Shown here: piece by piece, positions 8,827 through 34,251 of the stretch
Numbering within the stretch: position 1 is the first letter of the stretch
How the letters are laid out: every line of letters starts with the position of its first letter
NCBI GenBank assembly: GCA_964484435.1
Contig: CAZAGL010000001.1
Coordinates: 1-35,930 of the forward strand
DNA: 35,930 nt
Reading direction: 5' to 3'
Source of the DNA: an uncultured Caulobacteraceae bacterium
Lineage (GTDB): Bacteria; Pseudomonadota; Alphaproteobacteria; Caulobacterales; Aquidulcibacteraceae
Notes under the pieces: model-generated
Told to the model about the DNA's origin: nothing
Seen by the model: the letters and a program-made list of their open reading frames with translations, nothing else
Databases searched by the model: none
Program-made: the position numbers and the translations under genes

Positions 8827-8844
8827 ATCCACTCCCCAAGGCGA

Positions 8845-8859: not shown

Positions 8860-8951
8860 ACTTCCCTTGAATGACGGCGCTTGTCGAGCCCTGGCTTTGC
8901 ATGACGCCCATCCTTTCGCTAAGATCACGCCATAGATCATGGAATCTTGCG

Positions 8952-11359: not shown

Positions 11360-13795
11360 ATGATGATGGATATTGCCCCCATGCGCACGCAAATCGCTTA
11401 TATCGCCGCGTTCAGCTTTTTTGCGCTGTGCGACGGGGCGCTGGCGCAGACGGCCAATAGCGATGAAATCGTGGTGCTGGGCTCGCGCACCAAAGAGCGC
11501 ACCGCGCTCGATACGCCCGTGCCCGTCGATACCTTCAGCGCCGAGGCGCTGGCCAATGCCGGCGTGGTGGGCAATGAGCTTGGCCAGGCACTGGCCATTT
11601 CGGCACCCTCCTTCAATTTTCCGCGCCAATCCAATTCCGGCACGTCCGATTCGGTGCGGGCCGGCCAGCTGCGCGGGCTTAGCCCCGATCAACTGCTGGT
11701 GTTGGTTAACGGGCGGCGCATCCACACCTCGTCCGTCGTCAATAGCGAAACCAAGATCGGGCGCGGCGTCGCGGCCGTGGATTTCAACACCTTGCCCTTG
11801 GGCGGCGTGAAGCGGGTAGAGGTGCTGCGCGACGGCGCGGGCGCGCAATACGGCTCGGATGCCATTGCCGGCGTCATCAATGTGGTGCTGGATGATCGGC
11901 CAAGCGGCTTCGAGCTGACGGGCAGCTATGGCACGCAGATCACCCGCGTCGATCCGATCAACCAGACCCTCTCGGACGGGGAGCAATACGTGTTCGAGGC
12001 CGAAGGCGGCGTGCCGATCTTCGAGCGCGGCTTTATCCGTTTCGGCGGCGAATACATCAATCGCAATGCCACCAACCGCGCCGGCTTTGATCAGATCCCC
12101 TTCTTCGTGGATCAAACACCGGCCAATCTGGCTTTGCAGGGCCAGCGCAATTATTTCGAGGGCGATCCCGAAACCGAAACCTATAATCTGTGGCTCAATT
12201 CGGAAGTGCCGATCGGCGCGGCCACGATCTACACCTTCGGCACGTTTGGCCAGCGCCAGACGGAAGGCGGCCTGTTTTTCCGCTATCCCGATGCCTTCGA
12301 TAATGTGCGGGCGGTTTATCCCAACGGCTATCTGCCGCGCACCACGGGCGACAATCTCGATTTCAACATTTCCAGCGGGGTGCAATTTCCCTTGGCCGGC
12401 TTTGCCGCCGATCTCGGAATCACCTATGGCAAAAACCGTTTTGAATATGGCGTCGTCAACTCGCTGAACCCATCCTTGGGCGCACAAAGCCCCACGCAAT
12501 TTCGCTCCGCCGCGTATGAAAACGGCCAGCTCAGCGTCAATTTTGACGTATCGCGCGATCTCGGCGCTTTGGCCCTGCTTGGCGAAGTCAGCATCGCCGG
12601 CGGCGCGGAATATCGGCGCGAGGGCTTCCAAAGCTCAGCCGGTGAGCCGGCCTCCTTCCAGGCCGGCCCGTTCGATCTCGCCATCGGCGCGCAGGGCGCG
12701 CCGGGCCTGACCCCGCAGGACACGCGCGACATCAGCCGTGACGTTTTTGCCGTCTACGGAGAAATCTCGGCCGATCCAACGCCGAAACTTCAGCTTTCCG
12801 CCTCGGGGCGCTATGAATGGTATTCCGATTTCGGTTCCACCGGCTCGGGCAAGGGCTCCATCCGCTATGAAATCGTGCCGCAATTGGCCATTCGCGGGGC
12901 GTTGGGCAACACCATCCGCGCGCCCAATCTGGCGCAGATCGGCTTTGCCGATCGTTCCACCAATTTCGGCGATAACCGGGCCTTGATCTCCACGCGCACG
13001 GTGCCGGTCAGTGATCCGATCGCGCGCGCGCTGGGCGCGCAGGATCTGCGCCAGGAGCGCGCCTTCAGCGCCAGCGCCGGTTTTGTGCTCAATCTGGCCA
13101 GCAATTTCACCGCGACCTTGGATGCCTTCCGGGTCCGGGTGAATGATCGCGTGACGCTTTCCGAGCGCCTGTTCGGCAGCGCCATCGAAACCGCCATCGC
13201 CTCCCTGCCCGGCGGCGCGGGCACACAAAGCGTGCGCTTTTTCACCAACGCGGTCGATACGCGCACGTTTGGCGTCGATGCGGTGCTAACCTACAAGGCA
13301 CAGGTTTTTGGCGGCGATCTTGGCCTTTCCGGTGCCTTCAATTATTCGCGGACGGATGTCACGGATTTTGCAGCGACAACCCCGCAATTGCGGGCCCTCG
13401 ATCCGACCTTGGCGCTGATCGGCGTGGAAGAACTCAACACCCTGCAAACCGCCACCCCGCGCACCAAGCTGATCCTCTCTTCCACCTATGCCAAGGGCCA
13501 ATGGGATGGGCTGATCCGGCTGTCGCGCTTCGGCAGCGCCGAGCGGGTGTTCAACTTTGGCGGCGGCTTTGAGCCGTCCCAGCGCTATGGTGCGGAATGG
13601 GCGCTCGATGTGGAGGCCGCGCGCCGCTTCGGGGAGCATCTGCGCCTCTCCATCGGCGGTCAAAATCTGGCCGATAATTATCCCGATCCCTCCAGCGCGG
13701 ATATCAACTTCTTTGGCAATCTGCCCTTTGACATCCTCTCCCCCATCGGGGTGAACGGGCGCTATGTCTATGTGAAGGCCAAATTGAGCTATTGA
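11360..13795 (+). CDS. TonB-dependent outer-membrane receptor
   Basis: The signal peptide is 'AAFSFFALCDGALAQ'. A TonB-box-like 'DEIVVLGSR' follows. Plug-domain motifs are 'LRGLSPDQLLVLVNGRR' and 'VEVLRDGAGAQYGSDAIAGVINVV'. A long beta-barrel ends in an aromatic residue ('VKAKLSY'). Confidence 0.9.
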   Translation: MMMDIAPMRTQIAYIAAFSFFALCDGALAQTANSDEIVVLGSRTKERTALDTPVPVDTFSAEALANAGVVGNELGQALAISAPSFNFPRQSNSGTSDSVRAGQLRGLSPDQLLVLVNGRRIHTSSVVNSETKIGRGVAAVDFNTLPLGGVKRVEVLRDGAGAQYGSDAIAGVINVVLDDRPSGFELTGSYGTQITRVDPINQTLSDGEQYVFEAEGGVPIFERGFIRFGGEYINRNATNRAGFDQIPFFVDQTPANLALQGQRNYFEGDPETETYNLWLNSEVPIGAATIYTFGTFGQRQTEGGLFFRYPDAFDNVRAVYPNGYLPRTTGDNLDFNISSGVQFPLAGFAADLGITYGKNRFEYGVVNSLNPSLGAQSPTQFRSAAYENGQLSVNFDVSRDLGALALLGEVSIAGGAEYRREGFQSSAGEPASFQAGPFDLAIGAQGAPGLTPQDTRDISRDVFAVYGEISADPTPKLQLSASGRYEWYSDFGSTGSGKGSIRYEIVPQLAIRGALGNTIRAPNLAQIGFADRSTNFGDNRALISTRTVPVSDPIARALGAQDLRQERAFSASAGFVLNLASNFTATLDAFRVRVNDRVTLSERLFGSAIETAIASLPGGAGTQSVRFFTNAVDTRTFGVDAVLTYKAQVFGGDLGLSGAFNYSRTDVTDFAATTPQLRALDPTLALIGVEELNTLQTATPRTKLILSSTYAKGQWDGLIRLSRFGSAERVFNFGGGFEPSQRYGAEWALDVEAARRFGEHLRLSIGGQNLADNYPDPSSADINFFGNLPFDILSPIGVNGRYVYVKAKLSY

Positions 13796-13863: not shown

Positions 13864-14325
13864 GTGTTGCTGATGCGCCGCGATGAAGCCCTCAAGCGCC
13901 TTCGACAGCACCGTGCCCGCTTAACCGCGCTTGGGGTGGCGCACGCCTACCTTTTCGGCTCGGTCGCGCGCGATCAAGCCGATGAAGGCAGCGATATCGA
14001 TGTGATCGTAGATACACCCGACGGCACCGCCCCCGGACTTTTCGCACTCGCCCGCATCTCGCAAGAACTGGAGCATGTCCTGGGCCGGCCCGTCGATGTG
14101 ATCTCGCAGCGCGGCCTTGATCACGCCGTGGATTTCAAACACCGCATAGCCAATGACCTCATCGATGTCTTTTGCATCAGACCGATAATCAAGGCCCTTC
14201 AGGCCCGCAGGGCAGCGCAGGCGCGGGCCCGGTCAGTAATTCCCGCCCAATCGCCGGCCGCGATCGCCGCATCCGTGGCGATCCAGGAGCCGCCAACGCA
14301 CACGACATTGGCCAGCGCCAGATAA
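13864..14325 (+). CDS. Minimal nucleotidyltransferase (MNT/MntA-type, Pol-beta superfamily) with a non-conserved C-terminal extension
   Basis: The motif 'LFGSVARDQADEGSDIDVIV' is the GSxxRG...SDxD NTase signature. The recognisable domain ends at 'NDLIDVF' (nt 14172). The ORF then continues 50 more codons, antisense into the 3' end of eda. Possible starts are GTG 13864 or ATG 13873. No HEPN/DUF86 partner follows. Confidence 0.6.
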   Translation: MLLMRRDEALKRLRQHRARLTALGVAHAYLFGSVARDQADEGSDIDVIVDTPDGTAPGLFALARISQELEHVLGRPVDVISQRGLDHAVDFKHRIANDLIDVFCIRPIIKALQARRAAQARARSVIPAQSPAAIAASVAIQEPPTHTTLASAR

Positions 14326-14822
14326 TCTGGCGCGCTTTCGAGGCTGATGCCGCCCGTCGGGCAAAAGCGCAGATCCGGCAAGGGCCCGGCCAGGCTCTTG
14401 AGCAGAGCCCGCCCGCCCGCCGCCTCGGCGGGAAACAGTTTCAACAGCCGAAAGCCCGCATCGCGAGCCAGCATGGCCTCCGAAGCGGTGGCCACACCGG
14501 GCAGCAAGGGCGCGGGGCAATCGCGTGCGGCCTGCGCCAAGGCCGGGGTCAGCCCGGGGCTGACCAGGAAATGCGCGCCCGCCTCGGCGGCACCATAGGC
14601 ATCGGCCGCGCTCAAAATCGTCCCGGCCCCCAGCGCCATCTGCGGCACCTCACCCGCCACGCGGCGGATGGCCTCCAAAGCCGCCGGCGTGCGCAAGGTG
14701 ATCTCGATCGCGCCGATGCCCCCGGCCAAGAGCGCGCGGGCCAGAAGCGGCGCAGAGGCCGCATCGGCGATGGTCACCACCGGCATGACCGGCGAAAGCG
14801 CCAGCATCTGTTCCAGGATCAT
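14199..14822 (-). CDS. eda: 2-keto-3-deoxy-6-phosphogluconate (KDPG) aldolase
   Basis: The 207-aa protein contains 'VVTIADAA.A..LARALLAGGI.AIEITLRTPAALEAI', 'GAGTIL' and 'LKLFPA', typical of Eda-family aldolases. It is the last gene of the zwf-edd-glk-eda series and overlaps glk by 4 bp. Confidence 0.9.
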   Translation of the reverse strand: MILEQMLALSPVMPVVTIADAASAPLLARALLAGGIGAIEITLRTPAALEAIRRVAGEVPQMALGAGTILSAADAYGAAEAGAHFLVSPGLTPALAQAARDCPAPLLPGVATASEAMLARDAGFRLLKLFPAEAAGGRALLKSLAGPLPDLRFCPTGGISLESAPDYLALANVVCVGGSWIATDAAIAAGDWAGITDRARACAALRA

Positions 14823-15784
14823 GCCATTTCCCCTTCATGCGCCATTAATGCCGCCGCGCAGCCCACCATCGCCAAATCGGATCGCAGCACGCAATAGCTG
14901 GGAATGGGCGTGACGAAATAGGAAAGGCGGCCTTTGTCCTCGAAACGGGCTCGAAAGCGGCTGGCCCTGAGGAAATCCAGCATGTTGGGCGCGATGCCCC
15001 CGGCGATGAACACGCCCGATTCCGCGCCATAGAGCAGGGCCAGATCGCCCGATACCGCGCCCAATACCGCGCAAAACCGCTCCAACGCCAAAAGCGCGAT
15101 GCCATCCGTGCCATCCAAGGCGCGCCGCGTCACCTCTTCGGGGCTGAGCTTGCGGGCGCTGCCCGCCTCTTGCGCGAAAAAGGCATCCATATCCGCCAGG
15201 CCTGGCCCCGAGAGCAGCCGCTCCACCGAAACCCGCCCGTAAAGCGGTCGCAGATAGGCCAAGAGGTGGTCTTCGATCTCATCGCCGGGTGCAAAAGCCG
15301 TGTGGCCGCCCTCGCCCTGCACAGCATAATCGCCCACCAGGGCGCTGACACCAAAGCCCGTGCCCGGCCCGCAAATGGCCCGCACCGGCTGCGCGCCTGG
15401 CGCGGGCGCATCGGGCCCGCCCATCGGGGCCAGCTCTTCCCCGGCCAGAACCGGCAAGGCCATGGCATTGGCAGTAAAATCATTGATCAAGCGCACCCGG
15501 GCAAAGCCAAAGCCCTCGGCGATGTCGCGCGCGGAAAACCCCCAGCCCGTATTGGTGAAGCGGATGGCCTGGCCGCGCACGGGGCCGGCAACCGCGAAGG
15601 CGGCGGCCTGCGGCAAATCCTGGCCAAGGCCGTGCGCGTAATGCTGCAAAGCCTGGGCCAGATTGGGAAAATCCGCGCAGCGCAGCGCCTTGATTTTCGC
15701 CAGATTGACGCGCCCATTTTCAAAGCTGGCATAAGCAAAACGGGCATTGGTGCCGCCGATATCCCCGACAATGGCCTCGATCAT
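14819..15784 (-). CDS. glk: Glucokinase
   Basis: The N-terminal ATP-binding motif is '[13 protein letters not shown]'. It is followed by 'AVAGPV', 'TNTGW' and 'LINDFTANA', typical of bacterial Glk. It overlaps edd by 4 bp. Confidence 0.9.
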
Positions 15785-17592
15785 GATCCGCCCCAGGCAT
15801 CGAACACGCTGGCCCCCGTCTCGGCCCCGCTCACCTTCTCGCGAAACGGCGCGAACAATTCCCGGCCGAGGCCTGCACCCGGCTGGCTATGGCGCACCGC
15901 ATCGCGGCTGGCAAACTCGGCGGGATCGACCTGCACGTCCAGGATGCCGCGCTCGGCATCCAGAAGGATGATGTCGCCATCGCGCACCCGGGCCAAAGGC
16001 CCGCCGCCATCGGCCTCGGGCGTGACGTGCAGCGCCGCGGGCGTCTTGCCCGATGCCCCCGACATCCGCCCATCGGTGACCAACGCCACCTTGAAGCCGC
16101 GATCCTGCAACAGGCCAAGCTGCGGCGAGAGCTTGTGCAATTCGGGCATGCCATTGGCCCGCGGCCCCTGAAACCGGATCACGGCCACATGATCGCGCTC
16201 CAGCCGGCCGGCATTGAAGGCCGCGATGAAATCTTCCTGATCGTGGAAAACCAAGGCCGGGGCGCGCACCAAGCGGTGCGGGGCCGCCACGGCCGAGGTT
16301 TTGATCACGGCCCGGCCCAGATTGCCGGCCAGCAGGCGGATGCCGCCATCACCCGCGAAGGGATCGGCCATTGCGCGCAGCACGTCGCGATCCAGGCTGG
16401 CTTTGGGCGCGTCCCGCCAGGCCAGCACCTCTCCATCCAGGAAGGGCTCGCGCGTGTAGGCCTCAAGGCCCTGGCCCGCCACGCTGGCGACATCGCCATG
16501 CATCAGGCCGGCACCCAGCAATTCGCGCAGCAAAAAGCCCATGCCGCCGGCGGCATGGAAATGATTCACATCCGCTGATCCATTGGGATAGATCCGGCAC
16601 AGCAACGGCGTGATGGCCGAAAGCTCGGCAAAATCCGTCCAGTCGATCAAAACGCCGGCCGCGCGCGCCATGGCCACGAGGTGCAGCGTGTGATTGGTCG
16701 AGCCGCCGGTGGCCAACAGGCCGACCACCCCATTGACGATGGCCCGCGCATCGATCATCGCGCCCATTCCGGGCCCGCCTTCTCTGGCCAGGGCCACCGC
16801 TTTGTGCGCCGCCGCGCGCGTCAAGGCCTCGCGCAGCGGCGTGCCGGGATTGACGAAGGCCGCCCCCGGCAAATGCAAGCCCATGGCCTCCATCAGCATT
16901 TGGTTGGAATTGGCCGTGCCGTAAAAGGTGCAGGTGCCGGCCGAGTGATAGGATTGGCTCTCGGCGGCCAGCAGGGCCTCGCGGTCCACTTTGCCTTCTG
17001 CATAGAGCGCACGGATGGCAGCCTTTTCCTTGTTGGGCAGGCCAGAGGGCATGGGCCCGGCCGGCGCGAACACGATGGGCAAATGCCCAAAACTCAACGC
17101 CCCGATGAACAGGCCCGGGACGATCTTATCGCACACGCCCAGCAGAATCGCGCCATCAAACGCATCGTGAGAGAGCGCAACGGCCGTGGCCATGGCGATC
17201 ACATCGCGCGAAAACAGCGAAAGCTCCATGCCCGGCTGGCCCTGGGTGACACCGTCGCACATGGCCGGAACGCCGCCGGCCACTTGCGCCGCGGCCTTGA
17301 CCTCGCGCGCGGCCGCCTTGATCAAATCGGGATAGGTGGCAAACGGCTGATGCGCCGAGAGCATGTCATTATACGCCGTGACAATGCCCAGATTGACCGG
17401 CCCCGCGCTGCTCTGTTTGGGCTTATCCGCCGCCGGGGACGCGGCAAACACATGCGCGAGATTGGAGCACGAAAGCCGGGCCCGCGCCGGGCCGCGCCCC
17501 TTCCACGCGGCGATCTTGTCCAGATAGGCCCCGCGCGCCTCCTGGCTGCGGGCTTCGATGCGGGCGGTGATCTCAAGCAGTTTCGGATGCAT
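15781..17592 (-). CDS. edd: 6-phosphogluconate dehydratase
   Basis: The 603-aa ILVD/EDD-family protein contains 'MCDGVTQG', 'GVCDKIVPG', '[13 protein letters not shown]' and '[14 protein letters not shown]'. Its position lies between zwf and glk. Confidence 0.95.
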
Positions 17593-17622
17593 GCTGGCTC
17601 CTTTACGGGCGCGCGCGGAAAA

Positions 17623-19071
17623 TCATTCTTGCCAGGAATGCTGATGGCGTTCCACCAGGCCGGCCGCCCCTTGCGGGCCCCAAGTGCCGGCGGGATAGGG
17701 TTTTGGCTCGATGCGCAGGATCTCCCAGCCCGCCACCAGGCCATCGATCCAGCCCCAGGCCGCCTCGATTTCATCGCGGCGCACGAACAATGTCGAGCGC
17801 CCCTCCAAAGCATCGAGCAGCAAACGCTCATAAGCGATGCGGCGGCGCCGATCCGCTCCCCCATAGGCCGCATCGAAAGACAGGTTCAGCGGCAATTGCC
17901 GAAGCGCCAGGCCATCGCGGGCGAGGCCCGGCGTGCTGTTCATCAATTGCAGGGAAATGCATTCATCGGGCTGCAAATCGATGATCAGGGAATTGGGAAT
18001 GATCTGGGATCTCGGGAAGATCGAATGCGGCACTTGGCGGAACTGGATGAAAACCTGGGTGCGCCGCTGCGCCAGGCGCTTGCCGGTGCGCAGATAAAAC
18101 GGCACGCCGGCCCAGCGCCAGTTATCGATATGGGCGCGGATGGCCACGAAGGTTTCGGCGCGCGCGGCAAAGCCCTCCATCTCTTCGTGATAGCCCTTGA
18201 CGGCCGCCCCGCCCACGGCCCCGGCGCGGTATTGCCCGCGCACCGTATCCTGGGCCACCGAATCTTGCGTGAACGGGCGCAGGCAGCGCAGCACCTTGAC
18301 CTTTTCATTGCGCACGGCCTCGGGATCGAGGCTGGCCGGCGGCTCCATGGCGATCAGGCAAACCAGCTGCAGCAAATGGTTCTGCACCATGTCCCGCAGG
18401 GCCCCATACTCATCGTAATAGGAGGCGCGCCCTTCAAGGCCCACCGTTTCGGCGATGGTGATCTGCACATGCTCGATCGAGTTGGCATTCCACAGGGGCT
18501 CAAACAGGGTGTTGGCGAAGCGCAGCGCCAAGAGATTTTGCACCGTCTCCTTGCCCAGATAATGATCGATGCGGAAAATCCGCTCTTCGGCGAAAACCTT
18601 GCCCACCGCCTCATTGATGGCGCGCGAGCTGATCAGATCGCGCCCGATCGGCTTTTCCAGCACGATGCGCGCGCGCTCATGCGCCAGGCCGGCCGCCGCC
18701 AGATGCCCGGCGATGGCCCCATAAACGCTGGGCGAGGTGGACAGGAAAAACGTGGTTTCCGCTTCAAGGCCGATGGCTCGGGCCAGGGCATCAAAATCGG
18801 CTTGGACGGATGCATCGATCTTGGCGAAGGCTAGGCGCGCCGCGAACGCGCCAAACACCGCCCCATCAAACCGCGCGCCGGCCCGGGCGCGCACCGCCTC
18901 TTCGACCATGGCCTGGAAGGCCGGCGCATCCATCGCGCTGCGCCCCGTGCCGAAAATGCGCAAGCCAGCAGGCAAAAGCCCCTCGGCTTCGAGGAAATAC
19001 AGCGCCGGAAACAGCATGCGGCGGGCCAAATCCCCCGTACCGCCAAAGATCACCAACGCGCGCTGCATCAT
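17623..19071 (-). CDS. zwf: Glucose-6-phosphate 1-dehydrogenase
   Basis: The NADP-binding motif is '[20 protein letters not shown]'. The active-site motif is '[13 protein letters not shown]'. 'RGQY' and the C-terminal 'YPAGTWGP' are also present. Two in-frame ATGs lie at 19071 and 19068. Confidence 0.95.
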
Positions 19072-19602: not shown

Positions 19603-19661
19603 TTTTCCCTTGGTAGGAAGGGTCAGGATCAATTTCCCTCAGGCCAGTGGGCGCCGCCGCC

Positions 19662-20486
19662 ATGATCATCGCCCGGATCAAATCCCTTCTCCCGGAGCTG
19701 CGCCCCTCCGAGCGCAAGGTCGCCGAACTTGTGCTCGCCCAGCCCAATCTCACGGCCGGGTCCTCGATCAAGATGATCGCCGCCAGCGCAGGGGCATCCG
19801 AGCCCACGGTGATCCGCTTTTGCCGGGCCGTTGGCTGCGTTGGCGTGCAAGATCTCAAGCGCCAGATCATCCGCGATCTGGGCCGTCTGACGCCGGAATA
19901 CCAGCCCGCTTTCGCACCCGGTGATCCCTTCCAGATGCTGGCGGCCACCCTGTGTGATCAGGCCTTTTCCGCCGTTTTCGAGCTGCGCCGCACGCTGGCC
20001 TCCCCGCTTTTGGGCCAAGCGGCCAGCCGGCTCGCCCAATCTGGGCGCATTTGGGTTTGGGGGTTTGGCAACGCCGCCTCCATCGCCAGCGCCTGCGCGG
20101 ACGCCTTCTCGCGCGAGGATCTGCCGGCGCGCTCCAGCAATGATCCCTATGTCCAGATCGAAGAGGCCAGCGCCTCGACCGCTGCATCCACCGCTCTGCT
20201 GATCAGCCTGGATGGCCTGCGCACGCAGCAAAGCGACGCCCTGCTCTCCCCCGCGCGCCTGGTGCGGGCGGCAGGCGGCACGATTATCACGCTGGCCCCC
20301 AGCACCAGCGCCTTGACAGCCTTGGCGCATATCGCCTTGGCCCTGCCCGAGGCCGATAGCCAGGCCGCCCTGGGCAGCCCGGCACCGCGCTTTGCCGCCC
20401 AGCTTTTGATCGATGCCTTGCGCATTGGCGCGGGGATGGCCCGGGCACAATCCGGCATGCGCCCGGCATTGGCCGCCGGGGCCTGA
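19662..20486 (+). CDS. hexR: RpiR/MurR-family transcriptional regulator (HexR-like; HTH_6 plus SIS phosphosugar-binding domain)
   Basis: The N-terminal 'IKSLLPELRPSERKVAELVLAQP......SIKMIAASAGASEPTVIRFCRAVG' is the RpiR HTH. A SIS-like region follows ('RIWVWGFGNAASIA'). The gene is divergent from zwf, as hexR is in other proteobacteria. The start is set at ATG 19662; the track ORF begins 5 codons earlier. Confidence 0.8.
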   Translation: MIIARIKSLLPELRPSERKVAELVLAQPNLTAGSSIKMIAASAGASEPTVIRFCRAVGCVGVQDLKRQIIRDLGRLTPEYQPAFAPGDPFQMLAATLCDQAFSAVFELRRTLASPLLGQAASRLAQSGRIWVWGFGNAASIASACADAFSREDLPARSSNDPYVQIEEASASTAASTALLISLDGLRTQQSDALLSPARLVRAAGGTIITLAPSTSALTALAHIALALPEADSQAALGSPAPRFAAQLLIDALRIGAGMARAQSGMRPALAAGA

Positions 20487-20491
20487 GCCGC

Positions 20492-22468
20492 ATGGGCAGC
20501 CCCGTATCCGATTTCGCGCATTTGCAGGAAGATATCGTGCGCCTTGAAAAGGCCACGCATTCCGATCCCTTCTCTGTTCTCGGCCTGCATACCGAGGCGG
20601 ACAATCAGGGCATGAGCGTGCGGGTGTTTCACCCCGGGGCGAGAGCCGTTGAGGCCGTGCTGGGCGGCCAGCGCATCGCGCTGCGTTCGCTGGGCCCCGG
20701 CTTTTTTGCGGGGCTGGTGGCACCCGCTGGCCTGCGTGTTGTGTCCTATCGCCTGCGCATCGAAACCCCAACGGGGTTGGTGGAATGCGAGGATCCCTAT
20801 CGCTTCGGGCTGGTCATCCCCCCCGAGGATGCGATCGATCTCAAAGCCGGGCGCTGCTGGCGGGCGCACAAGGTGCTGGGCGCGCACGAGGCCGAATTGG
20901 AAGGTGTATCGGGGATCAGCTTTGCCGTTTGGGCCCCGACAGCCAGGCGCGTATCCGTGCTCGGCGATTGGAATGGCTGGGAACCGGCGCGCCGCCCCAT
21001 GCGCTTTCGCCATGAAATCGGCGTCTGGGAAATGTTCGAGCCGGGCTTGGCCCCCGGCGCGCCCTACGCCTTCGACATCCTCAGCACGGACGGGCGCCGG
21101 CTGCGAAAGCGCGATCCCTATGCGCGGGCGCTCAGCACGGCGGCACCGGCAGCGGCCATCGCCGCACCAGCCTGCCCGGATGCCTGGGGCGATACGGCCT
21201 GGCTCGCCAAGCGGCGCGACCACAGGGCCGAAAGTGCCTTCACCGCGCTGCACTGCGTGACCGCCGGGGATCATGATCCCCGGCCCGGCGGGGAAAATGC
21301 GCTGCTCGATCGCATCCAACATCTCGGCGGCACGCATCTGTGCCTCATGCAAGCCTGGACGCCTCAGTCAAATGCCAATTGGAACACGGAGCCCCGCGCC
21401 TGGCTCGCCCCCTCGATGGCCTGGGGCGGCCAGCCTGGCCTGCAGCGCCTCATCGATGGCGCGCATGCGCGCGGCCTCGGCATCGTCATCGATTGGCCGA
21501 TCCATGCCTTCAGCGACGAGGCGGAGGGCCTGGCGCGTTTCGACGGCAGCGCAATGTACGAACACGCCAATGCCGCCCGCGCGCTTTCCCCGGATGGCTC
21601 TCTGCGGCGCTTCAATTATGTGCGCTATGAAGCCGCCAATTTCCTGATCTGCGCGGCCTTGTTCTGGCTGGAAGACCTGCATGTGGATGGCTTGTTCCTG
21701 CGCGGCGTGCGCCACGCGCTGCAGTTTCACGCCCCGCTTGGCCACGCGGGCGTCGTCGATGCCGCAGGCGTTGATTTCCTGCGCAGCCTCACCGAATTGG
21801 TGGCCGCGCGCGCCCCCGGTGCCTTTGTGCTGAGCGATGCGCATGGCATCTGGCCCGGCATCAGCGCGCCGACCTGGGCGGGCGGCCTGGGCTGCGCGCG
21901 CAGCACCGTGCCCCATTGGGCGGGCTGGCTGGGCGATCCCGCGCAGCGCATGCTGGCCATGCTGGCTTTGCCCGAGCGCGCCGGCGCGCTGGCCTTCGAA
22001 GATTGGCGCGCGCGCCAATCTTGCCCACCCCGCGGGCAAGAAGCGCGGCTGGCCGCCTTGGTGATGGGCGCCTTGCCCGGCTGGAAAATCTGGCCTGGCG
22101 ATCTGGCCAGCACGGGGGATAGCCAAGACAGCCCGCACGATGTGATCGCCGCCCTCAATCGCGCCCAGCCGCAAGGCGCGTTGAGCCTTCTGGCGCATCC
22201 CGGCGCGCAGCAGGATATGCTGGCCTTCACGCGGGGTGAGAATTTGCTGTGCGCGGCCAATTTTTCGCACACGCAGGCCCGCGCGCATTGCCCCGCGCCG
22301 GGGCCGGGGCCCTATCAGGTCTTGGCGCACAGCCAGCCGGATCGCGGGGCCGCCGGCCAGCCCATCCTGGCGCAAGCCGCGCCCGAAAGCGCGACGGGCT
22401 GGGCCCTGCGCTTGGATCTTGCCCCGCGCAGCGCCTTGGCCGCGCAGCGCATGGGAGCGCAGCCATGA
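20492..22468 (+). CDS. GlgB-like (1,4-alpha-glucan branching enzyme homologue) with a conserved N-terminal/CBM48 region but a degenerate GH13 catalytic domain. It is either a putative pseudoenzyme or a decaying gene.
   Basis: The N-terminal half aligns well with E. coli GlgB from memory ('SDPFSVLGLH', 'EDPYRFG', 'LGAHEAELEGVSGISFAVWAPTARRVSVLGDWNGWE..RRPMRFRHEIGVWEMF', 'RDPYA'). The catalytic half is collinear but eroded. Region I 'DWVPGH' becomes 'DWPIHA'. Region II 'D(A/G)LRVDAV' becomes 'DGLFLRGV', so the nucleophile Asp is Arg. Region III 'MAEEST' becomes 'LSDAHG'. The region IV 'SHDEVVHGK' motif is not recognisable. The frame stays open for 658 codons. The stop overlaps the malQ-fusion start (ATGA). 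Confidence 0.6.
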   Translation: MGSPVSDFAHLQEDIVRLEKATHSDPFSVLGLHTEADNQGMSVRVFHPGARAVEAVLGGQRIALRSLGPGFFAGLVAPAGLRVVSYRLRIETPTGLVECEDPYRFGLVIPPEDAIDLKAGRCWRAHKVLGAHEAELEGVSGISFAVWAPTARRVSVLGDWNGWEPARRPMRFRHEIGVWEMFEPGLAPGAPYAFDILSTDGRRLRKRDPYARALSTAAPAAAIAAPACPDAWGDTAWLAKRRDHRAESAFTALHCVTAGDHDPRPGGENALLDRIQHLGGTHLCLMQAWTPQSNANWNTEPRAWLAPSMAWGGQPGLQRLIDGAHARGLGIVIDWPIHAFSDEAEGLARFDGSAMYEHANAARALSPDGSLRRFNYVRYEAANFLICAALFWLEDLHVDGLFLRGVRHALQFHAPLGHAGVVDAAGVDFLRSLTELVAARAPGAFVLSDAHGIWPGISAPTWAGGLGCARSTVPHWAGWLGDPAQRMLAMLALPERAGALAFEDWRARQSCPPRGQEARLAALVMGALPGWKIWPGDLASTGDSQDSPHDVIAALNRAQPQGALSLLAHPGAQQDMLAFTRGENLLCAANFSHTQARAHCPAPGPGPYQVLAHSQPDRGAAGQPILAQAAPESATGWALRLDLAPRSALAAQRMGAQP

Positions 22469-25400
22469 TGCGTCCCGTTAACGGCTTGACTTTTGGGAGG
22501 CTTGGCCGCGCCAGCGGCGTGCTGACCCACATCACCTCTTTGCCCAATGACGAAGGCGTGGGCAGCCTGGGCCAGGAGGCTTTCGATTTCATCGATCAGC
22601 TGGCAGAGGCCGGCCAGCGCGTGTGGCAAATCCTGCCGCTCAACCCCACCCAAAACGATGGCAGCCCTTATGCGGCGCTCTCCTCCTTTGCGGGCGCGGA
22701 GCATGTGATCAGCCTCCAGCGCCTCACGGAGCAAGGCTTGCTGGCGGCCGATGAATTGGCTCCTTTGCGCGCGCTGGATGCGCGCAGGATCGATTTCGCT
22801 TTGGCCTTGCCACTGCGCCGGCATCTGGTGGCGCTGGCGGCCAGCCGCTTTGCGGCACGGGCCGATGCGCGGGCCTTGGCGCAATTGGCCGCCTTCCAGG
22901 CCAAGGCCGGTCCGCTCTGGCTGGATGATTACGCGCTGTTTCGCGCCTTGCTGGAAGTGCATGCCTGGGCCGATTGGAGCGATTGGCCCGCCCCTTTGCG
23001 TGCGCGCGCGCCGGAGGCTTTGGCCAAAGCCCGCGCAGCCCATAAAGAGCGGATCGCCAACATCGTCATCGAGCAATTCTTCTTTGATCAGCAATGGCGG
23101 GCCCTGCGGGCGCATGCCCAGGCCCGCGGCATCGCGCTGTTCGGGGACATGCCCATCTATGTGGCGCAAACCAGCGCCGATGTCTGGTGCGCGCCGCATC
23201 TGTTCCATCTGGATGCGCATGGCAAGGCCATCACCGTCGCGGGCTGCCCGCCCGACATGATGGCCGCGGGCGGCCAGCGCTGGGGCAATCCCACCTATGA
23301 CTGGGCGGCCATGCAGGCCGATGGCTTTGCCTGGTGGATCGCGCGCATGCGCCACATGCTGGATGCCTATGATCTGGTGCGCATCGACCATTTCCGCGCC
23401 TTCGCCTCCTATTGGCAAATCCCAGCGCAGGATGCCGATGCCAGCGGCGGCATTTGGGTGCCGGCACCCGGGGAAGCGCTGTTCACCACGCTGCGCGAGA
23501 TCTTCGGCAATCTGCCGGTCGTGGCGGAGGATCTGGGCTTCATCACGCCCGATGTGTATGCCTTGCGCGATGCCTTCGATTTTCCAGGCATGCATATCAT
23601 CCAGTATGATCTGGAAGCCGAGCCCTTGCGCCCGGAGCAACATCCCCAAGCCTATCGGGCCCGATCAGTGGCCTATTTCGGCAATCACGATAACGCCACG
23701 GCGCTGGGCTGGCTGGAGGCGCAGGCCCAAGGGCTGACGCCAGAAAACCTGGCCACGCGCCCGCTTTTGCAGGCTGCAAATCAGGCTGATGCGCCGCATT
23801 GGGCGCTGAACGCCTTGGCGCTGCATTCGGGCTCGGCGCTGGCGATTTTGCAAATGCAGGACGTGCTCGGCCTCGGCGCGGAGCACCGCATGAATGTTCC
23901 GGGCACGGCGAGCGGTAATTGGCATTGGCGCTATGCCCGCCAGGATGTGCGCCCCGCCGATTGGGCCCGCCTGCATGACATGACCAAGGCCAGCGGCCGG
24001 GCACCCGATTTGGCCGTGGAATTGGCGCGTGCCCCCTTGGCCCTGCGCGATCTGCTGGACGAGGTGGATTGCGAATTCCTGGCACGCCAGCATCCCGCCA
24101 CCGGTTTGCTGCCGGCCGGGCCCGCGCATAACGGCCATGGCGATTATTCCCACGCCTGGGTGCGCGATAATTGCTATTGCGTGATGGCCATTTGGGCCGC
24201 GGCGGCCGCTGCCAAGCGCGCCGGCCTGCCGGCCCGCGCCGCACATTATGAAGAGCGCGCCATCGCCGTCTTGCGCGGCTTGCTGAAGGCCATGCAGGGC
24301 CAGGCCGATAAAGTGGCCCGCTTTTGCGCCAGCGGCTCACCGCGCGATGCGCTGCACGCCAAATACAATGCCACCAACGGCATGCCCATTTCCGGTGATG
24401 CCGATTGGGGCCATTTGCAGCTGGATGCGACCTCGCTGTTTTTGTTGATCTGCGCGGACATGACGGGCGCGGGCCTGCGCATCATCCGCAATCAGAACGA
24501 GGCGCATTTCCTCGCCAGCCTCGCCGATTATGTCGCGCTGGCTTGGCGCTGCGGCGATTATGGGATGTGGGAGCGCGGCGACAAGCGCAATATCGGCCGG
24601 GTGGAGCGCAACATGACCTCCCTGGGCCTGGCCAAAGCGGCGCTGCACGCCTTGCCGAAACTCGATTTTCCGCTAGAGGATGGCGATATGCCCGCGCGCA
24701 TCGCCCCGCGCCCGCCGCATTTGCTGGCCTTGTTCGATTGCGCCCTGTGCGGTGTCTTGCCCGAAGAATCCTTCTCCAAGGAAACCGATGCCGGCCTGCT
24801 GGCCGTGATCGGCTATCCCGGCTATGCCTGCCATGCTTGGCCCGAACGCGCGCGCGAAACCCGGGAGGCGATCGCCGCGCGCCTGGCCGGCCGTTATGGC
24901 GCGGTGCGCTTTTTGCTGGACGGCCATCAGAGCGTCTATGAGCACCCCCATCGCCTGCATTACGAGCCCGGAGAGCTGGCCCGCTTTGCCGGCATCGAAT
25001 GCCAATGGCCGTTATTCATCGCCTTCGCGGCCATGGATGCGGCGATGGCAGGGGATCAGGCCGCCACGCAGGCCGCCTTGGCGCGCCTGGAGGCCGTCGC
25101 CGAGCCAGGAGCCAAATGGAAGCGCATCCCCGAATTGTTCATGCTATCCCCCCAAAATGCCGAGGCGGAACGCGCAAAGCCCGGCTCCCAGCCGCGCTCC
25201 AGCAATGACAATCTGCCGCTCTATTGGGCCCAAAGCCTCTATCTGGGCGCGCGCCTGCTGCATGGCGGCTGGATTTGCCCGGACGATCTCGATCCACTGG
25301 GCCGGCGCCATGCGCCGCCCGCCGCTTTGCCTCTTGCCCCCTCCACCGGCGATGCACTGCAGCATGTGTTGGCGCGCGGGCTGCTGCTGCGCGATGGCCG

Positions 25401-26040
25401 TGGGGAATGGCACGATGTGCTCTCGCCCCGGGCGGTGGAGGGAAACGGCTTTGAGGAAATCCCCGCGCCGCTCAAACACGGCTTGGCCAGCCGCGCCGCC
25501 GATTGGCGCGCGCGCTTTGCCAAGGGGGTGATCGCCCTGGATTTACCGGCACTGGCCGCTTTGGGCGATGGGGTGCTGGCCCGTCTGGAGGCGGGCCCCG
25601 ATCTCGACGCCGCGCTGCTCACGCACACAGGCCTTGACTGGGCGCAATGGCGCACGGATCGCGGCGCGCTGTGCCCTGTCGGCGGGGCGTTCGCCGCGAT
25701 GCTTTGGGGGGCGCTGGATCGCTGCGCGGGCCTGCGCTTTGGCCCTGGCCAGCGCCTCGATGCGGCTTTGTGCCGGGCCGATCACACCCGCAATGAGCGT
25801 GCGTTTGCCCATCGCCTGCTCTTGGCCATCACCGCCGGCCCTTGGGATGCCCCCGCCTGCCTGGCCCGCGCGCTGATGCTGGAGGCGATCTGCGCCTTCG
25901 TGGCCGGGCCCTATCGCATGGCCGGCGATTTGGATCTGGTGCACTGCATCGCGGCGGCGGGCGGGGCCGAGGCGCTCGGCCCGCTTTCCCCGGCTGCGGT
26001 GCGGGCGCGGATCGAGGCCGTGCTGCGCGGCTTGGAGTAA
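22465..26040 (+). CDS. malQ: Fusion protein: GH77 4-alpha-glucanotransferase (amylomaltase, MalQ) plus a phosphorylase-kinase-alpha/beta-like GH15 (glucoamylase-like) module plus an uncharacterised tail of about 240 aa
   Basis: The start is ATG 22465, with GGGAG 7 nt upstream; the track ORF extends spuriously to 22249. The GH77 part (about 22465-23990) has 'GVLTHITSLPN..GVGSLG', 'WQILPLNPT', the nucleophile motif 'LVRIDHFRAF', the acid/base motif 'VVAEDLGFITPDV' and 'YFGNHDN'. The GH15-like part (about 24020-25310) has 'GDYSHAWVRDNCYCVMAIW', 'DADWGHLQLDATSLFLLICADMTGAGLRII', 'GMWERGDKRNIGRVERNMTSLGLAKAAL' and 'LPLYWAQSLYLGARLLHGGWICPDDLDPLGRR'. These match the phosphorylase kinase alpha/beta glucoamylase-like domain as I recall it. 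No stop or frame change occurs at the junction. Confidence 0.8.
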   Translation: MMRPVNGLTFGRLGRASGVLTHITSLPNDEGVGSLGQEAFDFIDQLAEAGQRVWQILPLNPTQNDGSPYAALSSFAGAEHVISLQRLTEQGLLAADELAPLRALDARRIDFALALPLRRHLVALAASRFAARADARALAQLAAFQAKAGPLWLDDYALFRALLEVHAWADWSDWPAPLRARAPEALAKARAAHKERIANIVIEQFFFDQQWRALRAHAQARGIALFGDMPIYVAQTSADVWCAPHLFHLDAHGKAITVAGCPPDMMAAGGQRWGNPTYDWAAMQADGFAWWIARMRHMLDAYDLVRIDHFRAFASYWQIPAQDADASGGIWVPAPGEALFTTLREIFGNLPVVAEDLGFITPDVYALRDAFDFPGMHIIQYDLEAEPLRPEQHPQAYRARSVAYFGNHDNATALGWLEAQAQGLTPENLATRPLLQAANQADAPHWALNALALHSGSALAILQMQDVLGLGAEHRMNVPGTASGNWHWRYARQDVRPADWARLHDMTKASGRAPDLAVELARAPLALRDLLDEVDCEFLARQHPATGLLPAGPAHNGHGDYSHAWVRDNCYCVMAIWAAAAAAKRAGLPARAAHYEERAIAVLRGLLKAMQGQADKVARFCASGSPRDALHAKYNATNGMPISGDADWGHLQLDATSLFLLICADMTGAGLRIIRNQNEAHFLASLADYVALAWRCGDYGMWERGDKRNIGRVERNMTSLGLAKAALHALPKLDFPLEDGDMPARIAPRPPHLLALFDCALCGVLPEESFSKETDAGLLAVIGYPGYACHAWPERARETREAIAARLAGRYGAVRFLLDGHQSVYEHPHRLHYEPGELARFAGIECQWPLFIAFAAMDAAMAGDQAATQAALARLEAVAEPGAKWKRIPELFMLSPQNAEAERAKPGSQPRSSNDNLPLYWAQSLYLGARLLHGGWICPDDLDPLGRRHAPPAALPLAPSTGDALQHVLARGLLLRDGRGEWHDVLSPRAVEGNGFEEIPAPLKHGLASRAADWRARFAKGVIALDLPALAALGDGVLARLEAGPDLDAALLTHTGLDWAQWRTDRGALCPVGGAFAAMLWGALDRCAGLRFGPGQRLDAALCRADHTRNERAFAHRLLLAITAGPWDAPACLARALMLEAICAFVAGPYRMAGDLDLVHCIAAAGGAEALGPLSPAAVRARIEAVLRGLE

Positions 26041-26150: not shown

Positions 26151-28064
26151 ATGGGAGGAATGAGGATGCCCCACCAATCGCACCCCGTGCGGCTTGGCCT
26201 TTTTGCCCTGCTGGCCATGCTGGCCTTGACCGGCTTCAGCCTCAACGCGCGCGCCGCCGCCATCGATCGGTTCGAGCCGGCCTCCTGGTGGATCGGCTTC
26301 AAGGACCCTTCCCTGCAAATCCTGGTGCATGGGCCAAAGATCGGGGCGCTGACGCCAAAACTGGATTATCCCGGCGTCAAGCTTATCGGCGCAACGCCCG
26401 GGGCCAATGCCAATTACCTGTTCATCGATCTGGAAATCAGCCCCAATGCCAAGCCGGGCCTTGTCGAGATCGCCTTCCAGCGCAAGGGCCGCACGCTGGA
26501 ACGGCACCGGCTGGATCTGCGCGCGCGCGAGGCCGGCTCGGCTGGGCGCGCCGGCTTTGCCCCGAAAGACGCCATTTATCTGATCACGCCCGATCGCTTC
26601 GCCAATGGCGATCCCGGCAATGACAGCGTCAAGGGCCTGCGCGAAGCGGCCAATCGCGCCATCCCGGGCGGGCGCCATGGCGGCGATATCCAAGGCGTGA
26701 TCAATTCCCTCGATTACATCGAAAAAATGGGCTTCACCCAGATCTGGCTCAATCCTTTGCTGGAGAATGATCAGCCAGAATATTCCTATCACGGCTATGC
26801 CACGACGGATTTTTACAAAGTCGATCCGCGCTTTGGCAGCAATGGTGACATGCGCCGGCTCGCGGATGCGGCCAAGGCCCGCGGCATCGGCCTGATCATG
26901 GATATGATCGTCAACCATGTGGGCTCGAAGCATTGGTGGATGGCCGATCCGCCCGGGCCCGATTGGATCAATTTCGGGGGCAAGTTTTCCCAGACCAGCC
27001 ATTTGCACATCACGCAAATGGATCCTTACGTGACGCAGCGCGATGCCAAGCAATTCTCCGATGGCTGGTTTGTCGAGGTCATGCCCGATCTCAATCAACG
27101 CGATCCGCATCTGGCCAAATATCTGATCCAGAACAGCATCTGGTGGATCGAATATGCTGGGCTTTCTGGCATCCGCATGGATACCTATCCCTATCCAGAC
27201 AAGGCGTTCATGAGCGATTGGTCCGGCCGGATCAACGCGGAATATCCCAATTTCACGATCGTGGGCGAAGAATGGGTGCGCAATCCGGCCATGGTGGCCT
27301 ATTGGCAAAAGGGCCATGTCAACAAGGATGGATATGTTTCTTATCTGCCCAGCCTGATGGATTTCCCTTTGCAGGATATGATGCGTCAGGCTTTGATCGA
27401 GGAAGAACAGCAATGGCCCGCGAGCGGCCTGTTCAAGCTCTATGAGGCGCTGGCCAATGATTTCGTCTACACCGATCCGGGCAAGCTGGTGGTGTTTCCC
27501 GATAATCACGATATGGATCGCATCCTGAAACAAATGGGCGGCGATATCGCTTTGGCGAAGATGGCGCTGGGCTATGTGGCCACGGTGCGCGGCATCCCGC
27601 AGATTTATTACGGCACCGAAGTGCTGATGACCAATCCCGGCCCCAAGGATGACGGCATCATCCGCAGCGATTTTCCCGGCGGATTTGTGGGCGATCGCGT
27701 CAATGCCTTTACCGGGGCCGGCCTATCGCCCGAGCAGCGCGATTTCCAGGAATTCACCCGCATATTGCTGAATTGGCGCAAGGCCAATCCGGCCTTGATG
27801 GAAGGGCGGCTGCTGCATTACGCGCCCAATGCCGGCGATGCGCGCCGCAAGGGTGTCTATGTGCTGGCCCGGCAAAGCACCGATGATGGCGTGCTGATCG
27901 CCATCAACAAGGACACAGCGCCCAAATCCCTGCCCATCGGCGAATATGCGCAGGCGCTGCGCGGCAAAACCAGCGGGCGCGACATCCTCACCGGCAAGCG
28001 CATGGATCTCACCCGCACGTTGGATCTGCCGGCGCGGGCCATCACCATCATCGATCTGGATTGA
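26151..28064 (+). CDS. Exported GH13 alpha-amylase-family enzyme (cyclomaltodextrinase/alpha-amylase-like with a Cyc-maltodext_N-type N-terminal domain)
   Basis: The signal peptide is 'VRLGLFALLAMLALTGFSLNARA-AA'. The GH13 regions are intact: 'DMIVNHVG', 'GIRMDTYPY' (nucleophile Asp), 'GEEW' (acid/base Glu) and 'FPDNHDMDR'. Candidate starts are ATG 26151, 26160 and 26166, and a GGAGGAA at 26154-26160 favours 26166. The track ORF start at 25842 overlaps the upstream gene and is rejected. Confidence 0.85.
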   Translation: MGGMRMPHQSHPVRLGLFALLAMLALTGFSLNARAAAIDRFEPASWWIGFKDPSLQILVHGPKIGALTPKLDYPGVKLIGATPGANANYLFIDLEISPNAKPGLVEIAFQRKGRTLERHRLDLRAREAGSAGRAGFAPKDAIYLITPDRFANGDPGNDSVKGLREAANRAIPGGRHGGDIQGVINSLDYIEKMGFTQIWLNPLLENDQPEYSYHGYATTDFYKVDPRFGSNGDMRRLADAAKARGIGLIMDMIVNHVGSKHWWMADPPGPDWINFGGKFSQTSHLHITQMDPYVTQRDAKQFSDGWFVEVMPDLNQRDPHLAKYLIQNSIWWIEYAGLSGIRMDTYPYPDKAFMSDWSGRINAEYPNFTIVGEEWVRNPAMVAYWQKGHVNKDGYVSYLPSLMDFPLQDMMRQALIEEEQQWPASGLFKLYEALANDFVYTDPGKLVVFPDNHDMDRILKQMGGDIALAKMALGYVATVRGIPQIYYGTEVLMTNPGPKDDGIIRSDFPGGFVGDRVNAFTGAGLSPEQRDFQEFTRILLNWRKANPALMEGRLLHYAPNAGDARRKGVYVLARQSTDDGVLIAINKDTAPKSLPIGEYAQALRGKTSGRDILTGKRMDLTRTLDLPARAITIIDLD

Positions 28065-34012: not shown

Positions 34013-34084
34013 GGAATTTCCCTTCTGGGCTCAATGCGTCCAGGCCTTTTGCCGGGACGGCGCATAGGTGCGCGCCATGACCGA

Positions 34085-34242: not shown

Positions 34243-34251
34243 GCTGGCAGG

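Follow-up and report, generated by a model that had tools for sequence, protein, structure and literature searches.

Background

What keeps a gene for a branching enzyme in place once the residues that perform the branching are gone? The question is raised by contig CAZAGL010000001.1 of assembly GCA_964484435.1, from an uncultured Caulobacteraceae bacterium, whose positions 1 to 35,930, read on the forward strand, form the window analysed here. At 20492..22468 the window encodes a homologue of the branching enzyme GlgB, hereafter pseudo-GlgB, and the stop codon of this gene overlaps the start of the next, which encodes a fusion of MalQ (GH77) with a GH15 domain. The original prediction, made from the letters alone, proposed that the product is a non-catalytic glucan-binding pseudoenzyme working with the MalQ-GH15 protein, and gave early gene decay as the alternative. 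Comparison with homologues suggests that pseudo-GlgB is most likely a glgB duplicate which lost its branching chemistry once, long ago, and which has been retained by selection as a non-catalytic protein within a small alphaproteobacterial group.

Results

Gene layout and loss of the catalytic site

The gene and its parts are listed below, with residues of Escherichia coli K-12 GlgB marked Ec.

20492..22468, + strand: pseudo-GlgB, a GlgB paralogue predicted to be catalytically dead, 658 amino acids (aa), ATG-started open reading frame (ORF) of 658 codons
20525..20800, + strand: GlgB_N (N1) domain, aa 12-103, well conserved (Pfam PF22019, E=5.7e-24)
20840..20860, + strand: L-K-A-G-R-C-W signature, aa 117-123, in the N1-CBM48 linker helix, conserved specifically in the pseudo-GlgB family
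20876..21124, + strand: CBM48 domain, aa 129-211 (Pfam PF02922, E=9e-20)
20978-20980, + strand: codon of W163 within CBM48 (E. coli W159, site IV)
21182..22171, + strand: remnant of the (beta/alpha)8 barrel, aa ~231-560, its beta-to-alpha loops shortened (same strand/helix alternation in two AlphaFold2 runs)
21491..21511, + strand: region I remnant DWPIHAF, with D334 retained (Ec D335) and Ec H340 replaced by A339
21680..21709, + strand: region II remnant HVDGLFLRGV, with Ec R403 replaced by F402 and Ec D405 by R404 (codon 21701-21703)
21824..21847, + strand: region III remnant FVLSDAHG, with the acid/base Ec E458 replaced by D449 (codon 21836-21838)
21992..22015, + strand: region IV remnant AFEDWRAR, without the His-Asp pair (assignment alignment-dependent)
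22205..22444, + strand: C-terminal all-beta domain, aa 572-651, weakly recognisable (Pfam PF02806, E=3.8e-5; AlphaFold2 beta strands at 564-653)
22465..22468, + strand: ATGA stop/start overlap of pseudo-GlgB and the malQ fusion, with GGGAG 6 nucleotides (nt) 5' of the malQ ATG

Both the 658-codon frame and its ATGA overlap with the next start were verified as first described. The domains are arranged as in GlgB, in the order GlgB_N, CBM48, barrel and C domain, and the proposed retention of a GlgB-like N-terminal and CBM48 region is borne out by the two Pfam matches and by an N1 identity near the canonical level. No Pfam match to the PF00128 catalytic domain was found in pseudo-GlgB, even at E<=10. 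The GlgB equivalog models of NCBIfam yield 176-269 bits against cut-offs of 463-2376, the best-scoring, NF009221, reaching 268.7 bits (cut-off 1270) and TIGR01515 211 bits (cut-off 464), and the HMMER local alignments of GlgB models end at about aa 470-487. GlgX/pullulanase-type models match in the CBM48 region only; the closest relatives and the best models are all GlgB (GH13_9).

The catalytic site was compared in a MAFFT L-INS-i alignment of the window protein, 12 further members of its clade (see below) and 107 canonical GlgBs, using the numbering of E. coli K-12 GlgB, in which Y300, D335, H340, R403, D405, E458, H525 and D526 were verified. At these eight sites pseudo-GlgB has T299, D334, A339, F402, R404, D449, D504 and W505. 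Seven of the eight active-site residues are replaced, D334 being the sole one kept, whereas each is retained by 105-107 of the 107 canonical GlgBs. Within the triad, the canonical set has the nucleophile Asp in 106/107 sequences and both the acid/base Glu and the transition-state Asp in 107/107; pseudo-GlgB has R404 for D405, D449 for E458, and W505 or a gap for D526. The -1 subsite (Y300, H340, R403, H525) has become T299, A339, F402 and D504.

A HMMER alignment to Mycobacterium tuberculosis GlgB (3K1D), independent of MAFFT, gives the same assignment of regions II and III. Region IV is not alignable by sequence profile and its residue assignment shifts between alignments, Ec H525/D526 pairing with D504/W505 or with gaps; an H-D pair appears in no alignment. 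The acidic residues E503/D504 near region IV were considered as a shifted transition-state Asp and rejected, as they are not conserved (P0006 has G-A there).

The by-eye alignment behind the original prediction was accurate. Region II reads exactly HVDGLFLRGV, with Arg changed to Phe and the nucleophile Asp to Arg at codon 21701-21703; region III has VLSDAHG in place of MAEEST, read here as FVLSDAHG with E458 changed to D449; the HD motif of region IV is unrecognisable, with D504-W505 or gaps in its place; and profile and multiple alignments put no Asp/Glu/Asp triad at the catalytic positions. On its sequence, pseudo-GlgB is predicted to be catalytically dead: nucleophile, acid/base Glu and transition-state Asp are all missing, as are the residues of the -1 subsite.

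This erosion is domain-selective. Median identity of the window protein to canonical GlgBs is 36% in N1, 46% in CBM48, 28% in the barrel and 18% in the C domain, against 41%, 59%, 65% and 48%, respectively, among canonical GlgBs themselves. Positions that are invariant in canonical GlgBs (at least 95%) and kept in less than 30% of the family number 79, of which 65 lie in the barrel, nine in the C domain, five in CBM48 and none in N1. With 658 aa against 728 in E. coli GlgB, the protein is 70 residues shorter, 89 being deleted and 19 inserted; this agrees with the some 70 missing residues first estimated, and the deletions fall in barrel loops (Ec 258-266, 421-428, 493-507, 534-544, 578-594 and 610-621). 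In all three segments of pseudo-GlgB, the GC content of the three codon positions (GC1/GC2/GC3) shows normal periodicity and, since the frame is also kept in homologues, the open frame is not an accident of GC-rich DNA.

The pseudo-GlgB family and its constraint

A homologue search recovered a discrete clade (P0001-P0010, P0020, P0057 and P0061) of proteins of 631-830 aa with 35-100% identity to the window protein, none of which has a precomputed PF00128 match. Ordinary GlgBs come next; their matches span about 70% of the query with some 35-40% identity. A profile search of 1.84 billion representatives added P0246, P0247, P0250, P0251, P0253, P0254 and P0278, all of them predicted dead at the catalytic positions, which brings the family to about 20 cluster representatives, intact and apparently without catalysis down to about 30-40% identity. 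High family-profile scores were also obtained by P0248, P0249 and P0252, GlgB homologues of 830-1215 aa in which the GlgB_N and CBM48 module is duplicated before the alpha-amylase domain; the only reason for these scores is that the N-terminal half matches twice. P0248 and P0249 carry all eight catalytic-site residues, and P0252 stops before region II.

In a neighbour-joining tree (no bootstrap) built on the undegraded N1 and CBM48 columns, 19 family members, P0278 not being included, form one clade, which points to a single ancient loss of catalysis and a single-origin family. What replaced the catalytic residues varies. Across the family the nucleophile position holds R, Q, P, T, W or I: Arg in 12 of the 13 close-clade members and in P0246 and P0278, with P, T, W or I among the most distant ones. 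The acid/base position holds Asp in ten of the 13 close-clade members and Cys in the remaining three. Arg404 was considered as a conserved functional replacement and rejected at the level of the family; being conserved in the close clade and not family-wide, it is given no specific role.

The family has conserved features of its own. There are 23 family-specific conserved positions, 12 of which fall in residues 107-212 and include L-K-A-G-R-C-W at 117-123, where canonical GlgBs mostly have x-x-E-G-x-H-x (E in 85% and H in 94% of sequences). This linker motif is a candidate for a new interface. Another family-specific conserved residue is an Asp, D423.

Selection was estimated from the pairwise Nei-Gojobori ratio of non-synonymous to synonymous substitution rates (dN/dS, or omega), with dS saturating for pairs at 60% identity. 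The ratio is 0.23 against P0002 (95% bootstrap interval 0.17-0.29; dS 0.42) and 0.31 against P0003 (dS 0.33). For the barrel only, the values are 0.22 (P0002) and 0.35 (P0003), not above those of the N-terminal half, and the bootstrap upper bounds for pseudo-GlgB are at most 0.53. The retrieved coding sequences are intact in 8/8 cases. The original prediction had named frameshifts or neutral evolution among orthologues as the mark of a plain pseudogene, and purifying selection as the mark of a functional one. The eight coding sequences hold no frameshift, and a range of 0.22-0.35 with the barrel level with the N-terminal half, under the same upper bounds, places pseudo-GlgB on the side of function. 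GlgB homology and fold, loss of essential residues, and purifying selection across diverged lineages together identify it, on comparative evidence, as a pseudoenzyme. Its expression context consists of its operon position and a Shine-Dalgarno-like sequence.

Predicted fold and glucan-contact residues

AlphaFold2, run with the 119-sequence alignment, gave a model with a predicted local distance difference test (pLDDT) score of 90 and a predicted template modelling score (pTM) of 0.90. In Foldseek this model matched full-length GlgBs, with a template modelling (TM) score of 0.86 to 3K1D of M. tuberculosis (E=2e-50) and 0.84 to 9U77. When only 13 family sequences were supplied, mean pLDDT was 65; N1, CBM48 and the C domain were still confident and the strand/helix pattern of the barrel was the same, but pLDDT fell below 50 in the loops (291-304, 338-380 and 450-499) on what was once the catalytic face. 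As far as the models go, barrel topology is supported and loop geometry is not.

Twelve surface glucan sites are known in E. coli GlgB, one representative residue being given for each in Table 1 of PMC10254366, where site IV is represented by W159. In canonical GlgBs the residues W159, W544, W586, W628 and F294 are invariant or nearly so. The CBM48 residue W163 of pseudo-GlgB, which corresponds to W159, is invariant in 19/19 family members and in 52/52 canonical sequences.

Operon context

The genes around pseudo-GlgB in the window are the following.

14199..19071, - strand: Entner-Doudoroff operon zwf-edd-glk-eda, divergent from the regulator (Pfam and NCBIfam)
19647..20486, + strand: RpiR/HexR-type regulator, stop 5 nt before the pseudo-GlgB start, divergent from zwf (Pfam HTH_6)
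22465..26040, + strand: MalQ (GH77) with GH15 domain and KPBB_C, 1191 aa, no signal peptide (Pfam; NF011080, 582 bits, cut-off 477)
26160..28064, + strand: periplasmic GH13 cyclomaltodextrinase-like protein (Pfam Cyc-maltodext_N, Alpha-amylase and Cyc-maltodext_C), signal sequence MRMPHQSHPVRLGLFALLAMLALTGFSLNARAAA, start set by homology to locus L081
28079..30181, + strand: GH97 glycosidase (Pfam GH97_N, GH97 and GH97_C), Tat/Sec-like signal MQRRSLLMGMSAAGALLAAGSAFA

Gene order was compared in 13 contexts, namely the window and the loci L081-L083, L084, L085, L086/L087, L088, L089, L090, L092, L093, L094, L095 and L176. All 13 share a common core in which an RpiR/HexR-type regulator is followed by the dead GlgB, optionally by GlgX, and then by MalQ, which is the first or second gene downstream throughout (in L094 the contig ends inside GlgX). 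Three downstream arrangements occur: MalQ-GH15 with KPBB_C in the subclade of the window and with P0247, plain MalQ in L093, and GlgX followed by MalQ in L095 and L176. The gap between the dead glgB and the next gene, be it MalQ or GlgX, ranges from -8 to +12 nt, with overlaps of 1-8 nt being usual, and the 4-nt ATGA-type overlap recurs in eight of the 12 other contexts. GlgX neighbours the family in four contexts (L094, L095, L176 and, at 5 kb, L093), and the GlgX genes of these operons are catalytically intact, passing TIGR02100 and retaining D/E/D. The surroundings also contain Entner-Doudoroff genes, along with genes either for a MalK-type ATP-binding cassette importer or for a TonB receptor and periplasmic enzymes of GH13 and GH97. 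In the window, signal peptides are found on the GH13 and GH97 proteins but on neither pseudo-GlgB nor the MalQ fusion, so this latter pair probably works in the cytoplasm.

The MalQ fusion is itself unusual. Its C-terminal part of about 680 aa (24010-26037; 676 aa) finds PDB matches only in the alpha (8jfk_M, E=6e-91) and beta (E=7e-66) subunits of phosphorylase b kinase (PhK), and this PhK-like part contains a WERGDK motif and the KPBB_C region. Among 5.8 billion proteins only 12 further cluster representatives show the MalQ-GH15 architecture; counted with the window, they equal the close pseudo-GlgB clade in number (13). In the upstream contexts that were retrieved for these fusions the dead GlgB precedes the fusion, and sister lineages hold GlgX in the same slot. 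Since distant family members adjoin plain MalQ and intact GlgX, the presumed partner is not the GH15 fusion as such. The link to MalQ that the original prediction drew from the ATGA overlap is upheld, with MalQ first or second downstream in 13/13 contexts and overlapping genes the rule; it extends to MalQ generally and not specifically to the GH15 fusion.

In 13/13 contexts the dead glgB is immediately preceded by the regulator gene, at a gap of -14 to +6 nt, and no RpiR gene was found near canonical glgB in the 80 loci examined (0/80). Against the HexR subfamily model the window regulator scores 108 bits, the cut-off being 296. The regulators align over their full length to 8JU9/8K3B, with degenerate phosphate-binding motifs in the SIS domain (GFGASG to GFGNAA, ISQSG to ISLDG). 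The motifs are degenerate in 11 of 12 regulators; only that of L094 keeps GSGRSG, and a Pfam SIS domain is detected in that one only.

In L034, L061 and L073, from the Burkholderiales genera Niveibacterium, Piscinibacter and Ideonella, a canonical, catalytically intact glgB is followed by glgX-malQ without an RpiR gene, the same gene order as in the dead-GlgB operons L095 and L176. This makes glgB-glgX-malQ a plausible ancestral arrangement. A scan of genome contigs with N-terminal patterns shared with real GlgB found only canonical loci, at no more than 39% identity, and in a scan of metagenome contigs with the barrel-only alignment all 80 loci among the matches listed carry the canonical region II motif.

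The zwf-edd-glk-eda arrangement of the window is repeated in L081, L084 and L089. No pgl gene lies between zwf and edd in the window, and a pgl-like gene (Glucosamine_iso) is present in L093. In L084 (7218-8666; NCBI GCA_021731965.1) zwf is split into two ORFs of 106 and 349 aa, through a frameshift or an assembly error, in a locus that is otherwise syntenic. A TonB-dependent receptor (11360-13795, + strand), before the Entner-Doudoroff operon, and a major facilitator superfamily transporter (7321-8940, - strand) are both possible components of sugar uptake. On the 3' side of GH97, a 385-aa ORF (30233-31390, + strand) without a Pfam or NCBIfam match is conserved in L081-L083 (377 aa, 86% identity, dN/dS 0.21), and flagellin and FlbT genes occupy 32312-35182 on the - strand, FlbT marking the organism as alphaproteobacterial. 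The nearest named matches to the Edd protein of the window, from a Caulobacteraceae metagenome-assembled genome, Rhizomicrobium and Caulobacter sp. S45, share 67-70% identity with it.

Annotation and other altered GlgB homologues

Family members are annotated as '1,4-alpha-glucan branching enzyme' by JGI and as 'hypothetical protein' by NCBI (MGF1462908.1, from a Maricaulaceae metagenome-assembled genome, MAG). Altered sites are also found beyond the family. By automatic alignment, the D405/E458/D526 triad is kept in only 54 of the 132 best profile matches of at least 600 aa, and outside the pseudo-GlgB family 47 matches have a substituted nucleophile (N in ten, C in five, others in the rest) and lack the family signature. 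Examples among P0255-P0391 are MBV1775150.1, deposited as '1,4-alpha-glucan branching enzyme [Burkholderiaceae bacterium DAT-1]' with LRLHGLSAI in region II, and MEJ2034107.1, from a Deltaproteobacteria MAG. Dead GlgB paralogues may have arisen many times and may be routinely mis-annotated.

Discussion

A probable subunit of alpha-glucan catabolism

Conservation of the gene with its neighbours suggests that pseudo-GlgB belongs to a cytoplasmic module for alpha-glucan catabolism, as a subunit or scaffold without catalysis of its own and with a role like that of ISA2 in plants. This account is the probable one, by a modest measure, and the physical partnership within it is inferred from gene linkage. 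Pseudo-GlgB would be made in fixed proportion with MalQ (here MalQ-GH15) or, in other lineages, with GlgX, and would serve these enzymes in the cytoplasm. Its CBM48 would hold or present alpha-glucan chains, whether imported maltodextrin, limit dextrin or glycogen, while the remodelled barrel and the LKAGRCW linker motif would act as protein-protein surfaces; the products would deliver glucose to the adjacent glk/zwf/edd/eda pathway. As for its history, a glgB-glgX-malQ cluster may have been recruited to catabolism, where branching would have become useless or harmful and the protein would have been kept because its partners depended on it. Co-operation between GH13 folds and GH77 has parallels in the curated GlgX/MalQ bifunctional families NF011082 and NF011083 and in the many GH13+GH77 fusions found.

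Several findings weigh against this account. The 13 contexts share one ancestor and are not independent of each other. The coupling to the RpiR gene, a link that the original prediction does not mention, is as strict as that to MalQ and is specific to the pseudo-GlgB family, given its absence at the canonical loci. With an omega of 0.23-0.31 against 0.09-0.21 for the neighbouring genes, pseudo-GlgB evolves faster than any other gene of the operon; constraint on it is weaker than on the others, yet clearly present. The high-confidence AlphaFold2 model leans on canonical homologues, as the collapse of the barrel loops in the family-only run indicates. Four of the five surface-site residues (W586, W544, W628 and F294) are lost in the family, so that glucan binding, if it occurs, depends on CBM48; binding through this domain is plausible, and the barrel surface appears remodelled. 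As to the initial proposal of a glucan-binding pseudoenzyme working with MalQ, a functional pseudoenzyme linked to MalQ is supported and the glucan binding holds in part, W163 being kept and those four residues lost.

Alternative roles

The strict linkage to the regulator would be explained directly if pseudo-GlgB were a regulatory pseudoenzyme, an alpha-glucan sensor or co-regulator that binds or releases the upstream RpiR/HexR-type repressor according to glucan load, in the manner of Gal3, the inactive galactokinase paralogue that acts on Gal80 in yeast and has retained its ligand site. This is unlikely, though worth serious attention: the regulator stands directly upstream in every context, within -14 to +6 nt, and is absent at 80/80 canonical glgB loci, and its degenerate SIS phosphate-binding motifs mean that these regulators may need another way to sense substrate. 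On the other side, the regulator resembles HexR and is divergent from zwf, as is usual for HexR, so that the glucan genes may have been inserted once into a hexR transcript; and the former active-site cleft of pseudo-GlgB, where a ligand would be most expected to bind, is nearly without sugar-contact residues, unlike that of Gal3.

A broader proposal, which must be called speculative and rather improbable, joins the dead GlgB, the degenerate-SIS RpiR regulator and the MalQ-PhK-like fusion into a single assembly that both senses and degrades alpha-glucan. The dead GlgB would report glucan status to the regulator, in the manner of Gal3, and dock the enzymes, the whole being a bacterial counterpart, and possibly an evolutionary relative, of the regulatory machinery of eukaryotic glycogen particles; dead GlgB paralogues, with the 47 further candidates above, would then be an unrecognised class of regulators of bacterial glucan metabolism annotated as branching enzymes.

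Pseudo-GlgB might also act by itself, as a glucan chaperone or competitor whose CBM48 binds chains and keeps long MalQ products soluble, or blocks re-branching or re-synthesis, without forming a complex. MalQ lengthens chains by disproportionation, the CBM48 Trp is invariant, and the gene shares a catabolic operon with MalQ, where its position implies co-expression. A lone CBM48 would suffice for such a task, however, which leaves some 330 constrained barrel residues and the family motifs unexplained, and most surface glucan sites are lost; this role is improbable.

Alternatively, the protein could still be an enzyme, with non-canonical chemistry or another substrate, working through D334, D449 or D423. 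D334 and the Asp at the acid/base position are present in most close members and D423 is family-specific, but the end of strand beta-4 offers no nucleophile candidate (Arg, or Pro/Thr/Trp/Ile in distant members), the -1 glucose binders R403, H340, H525 and Y300 are all gone, the active-site loops are deleted, and no candidate acidic residue is kept by every member of the family. Such activity is very improbable.

Early decay, the alternative named with the original prediction, in which a unitary pseudogene happens to be open in GC-rich DNA, could appeal to the relaxed rate of the gene and to the long spurious ORFs on other frames of the GC-rich window, but is contradicted, to the point of being hardly credible, by orthologues of similar length that are intact (8/8 frames) down to about 30-40% identity, by an omega of 0.22-0.35 with upper bounds of at most 0.53, by normal codon-position GC periodicity, and by conserved synteny (13/13 contexts), overlaps and family motifs.

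Significance

In plants, starch metabolism depends centrally on non-catalytic paralogues, ISA2 and the inactive beta-amylases among them. No equivalent of these was found in the searchable literature for bacterial glycogen or maltodextrin metabolism, and the pseudo-GlgB family would be the first such case in bacteria to stem from the branching enzyme itself. No bacterial dead-GlgB family came to light in literature searches for pseudo- or inactive GlgB, glgB2 and GH77-GH15 fusions, nor in a 2024 Chem Rev survey of alpha-glucan enzymes in prokaryotes, which does not by itself prove novelty. In practice, metabolic reconstructions that count pseudo-GlgBs as GlgB would wrongly infer a capacity for glycogen branching. 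The three adjacent genes make a simple testable system, as their products can be co-expressed, and the fusion of MalQ to a bacterial domain resembling PhK-alpha/beta deserves a separate analysis.

Comparison with known systems

The nearest relatives are the GlgBs of GH13_9 (3K1D, E. coli 1M7X, Vibrio vulnificus 9U77), which share with pseudo-GlgB the order of four domains, 35-40% identity over the first ~480 residues, a TM score of 0.84-0.86 to the model and the site IV Trp of CBM48. Pseudo-GlgB differs in the replacement of seven of the eight catalytic and -1 residues, in lacking PF00128, in scoring 2-12 fold under the cut-offs of the models, in being 70 residues shorter and in lying in an RpiR-controlled catabolic operon instead of a glycogen synthesis cluster.

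The SLC3 heavy chains 4F2hc and rBAT are non-catalytic ectodomains derived from GH13. They likewise re-use a GH13 barrel as a protein-protein scaffold after the loss of catalysis; however, they belong to eukaryotic membrane proteins of oligo-1,6-glucosidase-like origin, with no CBM48 and no link to glucan metabolism. In chlamydial GlgA-GlgB fusions the branching domain has been argued to be non-functional, an effect attributed to the N-terminal GlgA extension (PMC7935935). These offer a bacterial GlgB-derived module argued to be inactive in branching, but the inactivity is not attributed to a loss of catalytic residues and the context is synthesis, not catabolism. Another parallel concerns the partner enzyme. 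DPE2 of Arabidopsis is a GH77 glucanotransferase with CBM20 modules of its own, and its reliance on carbohydrate-binding modules to act on polymeric glucan provides an analogy for a MalQ that would borrow a CBM48 partner; in DPE2 the modules are fused in cis, whereas here binding would fall to a separate protein, the dead enzyme.

The closest functional analogue of pseudo-GlgB, if the resemblance extends to function, is ISA2. Plant ISA2 is a non-catalytic isoamylase subunit that partners the catalytic ISA1 (PMC12218847 and PMC12510319). Pseudo-GlgB is bacterial and derived from GH13_9, not GH13_11, its neighbour in the window is MalQ-GH15, and the link to that neighbour is genomic. Both nevertheless combine a CBM48 with a GH13 fold devoid of catalytic residues, both are kept by selection, and each has a catalytic glucan enzyme as its partner, presumed in the case of pseudo-GlgB; and in four contexts of the family the neighbour of pseudo-GlgB is GlgX, the bacterial counterpart of ISA1.

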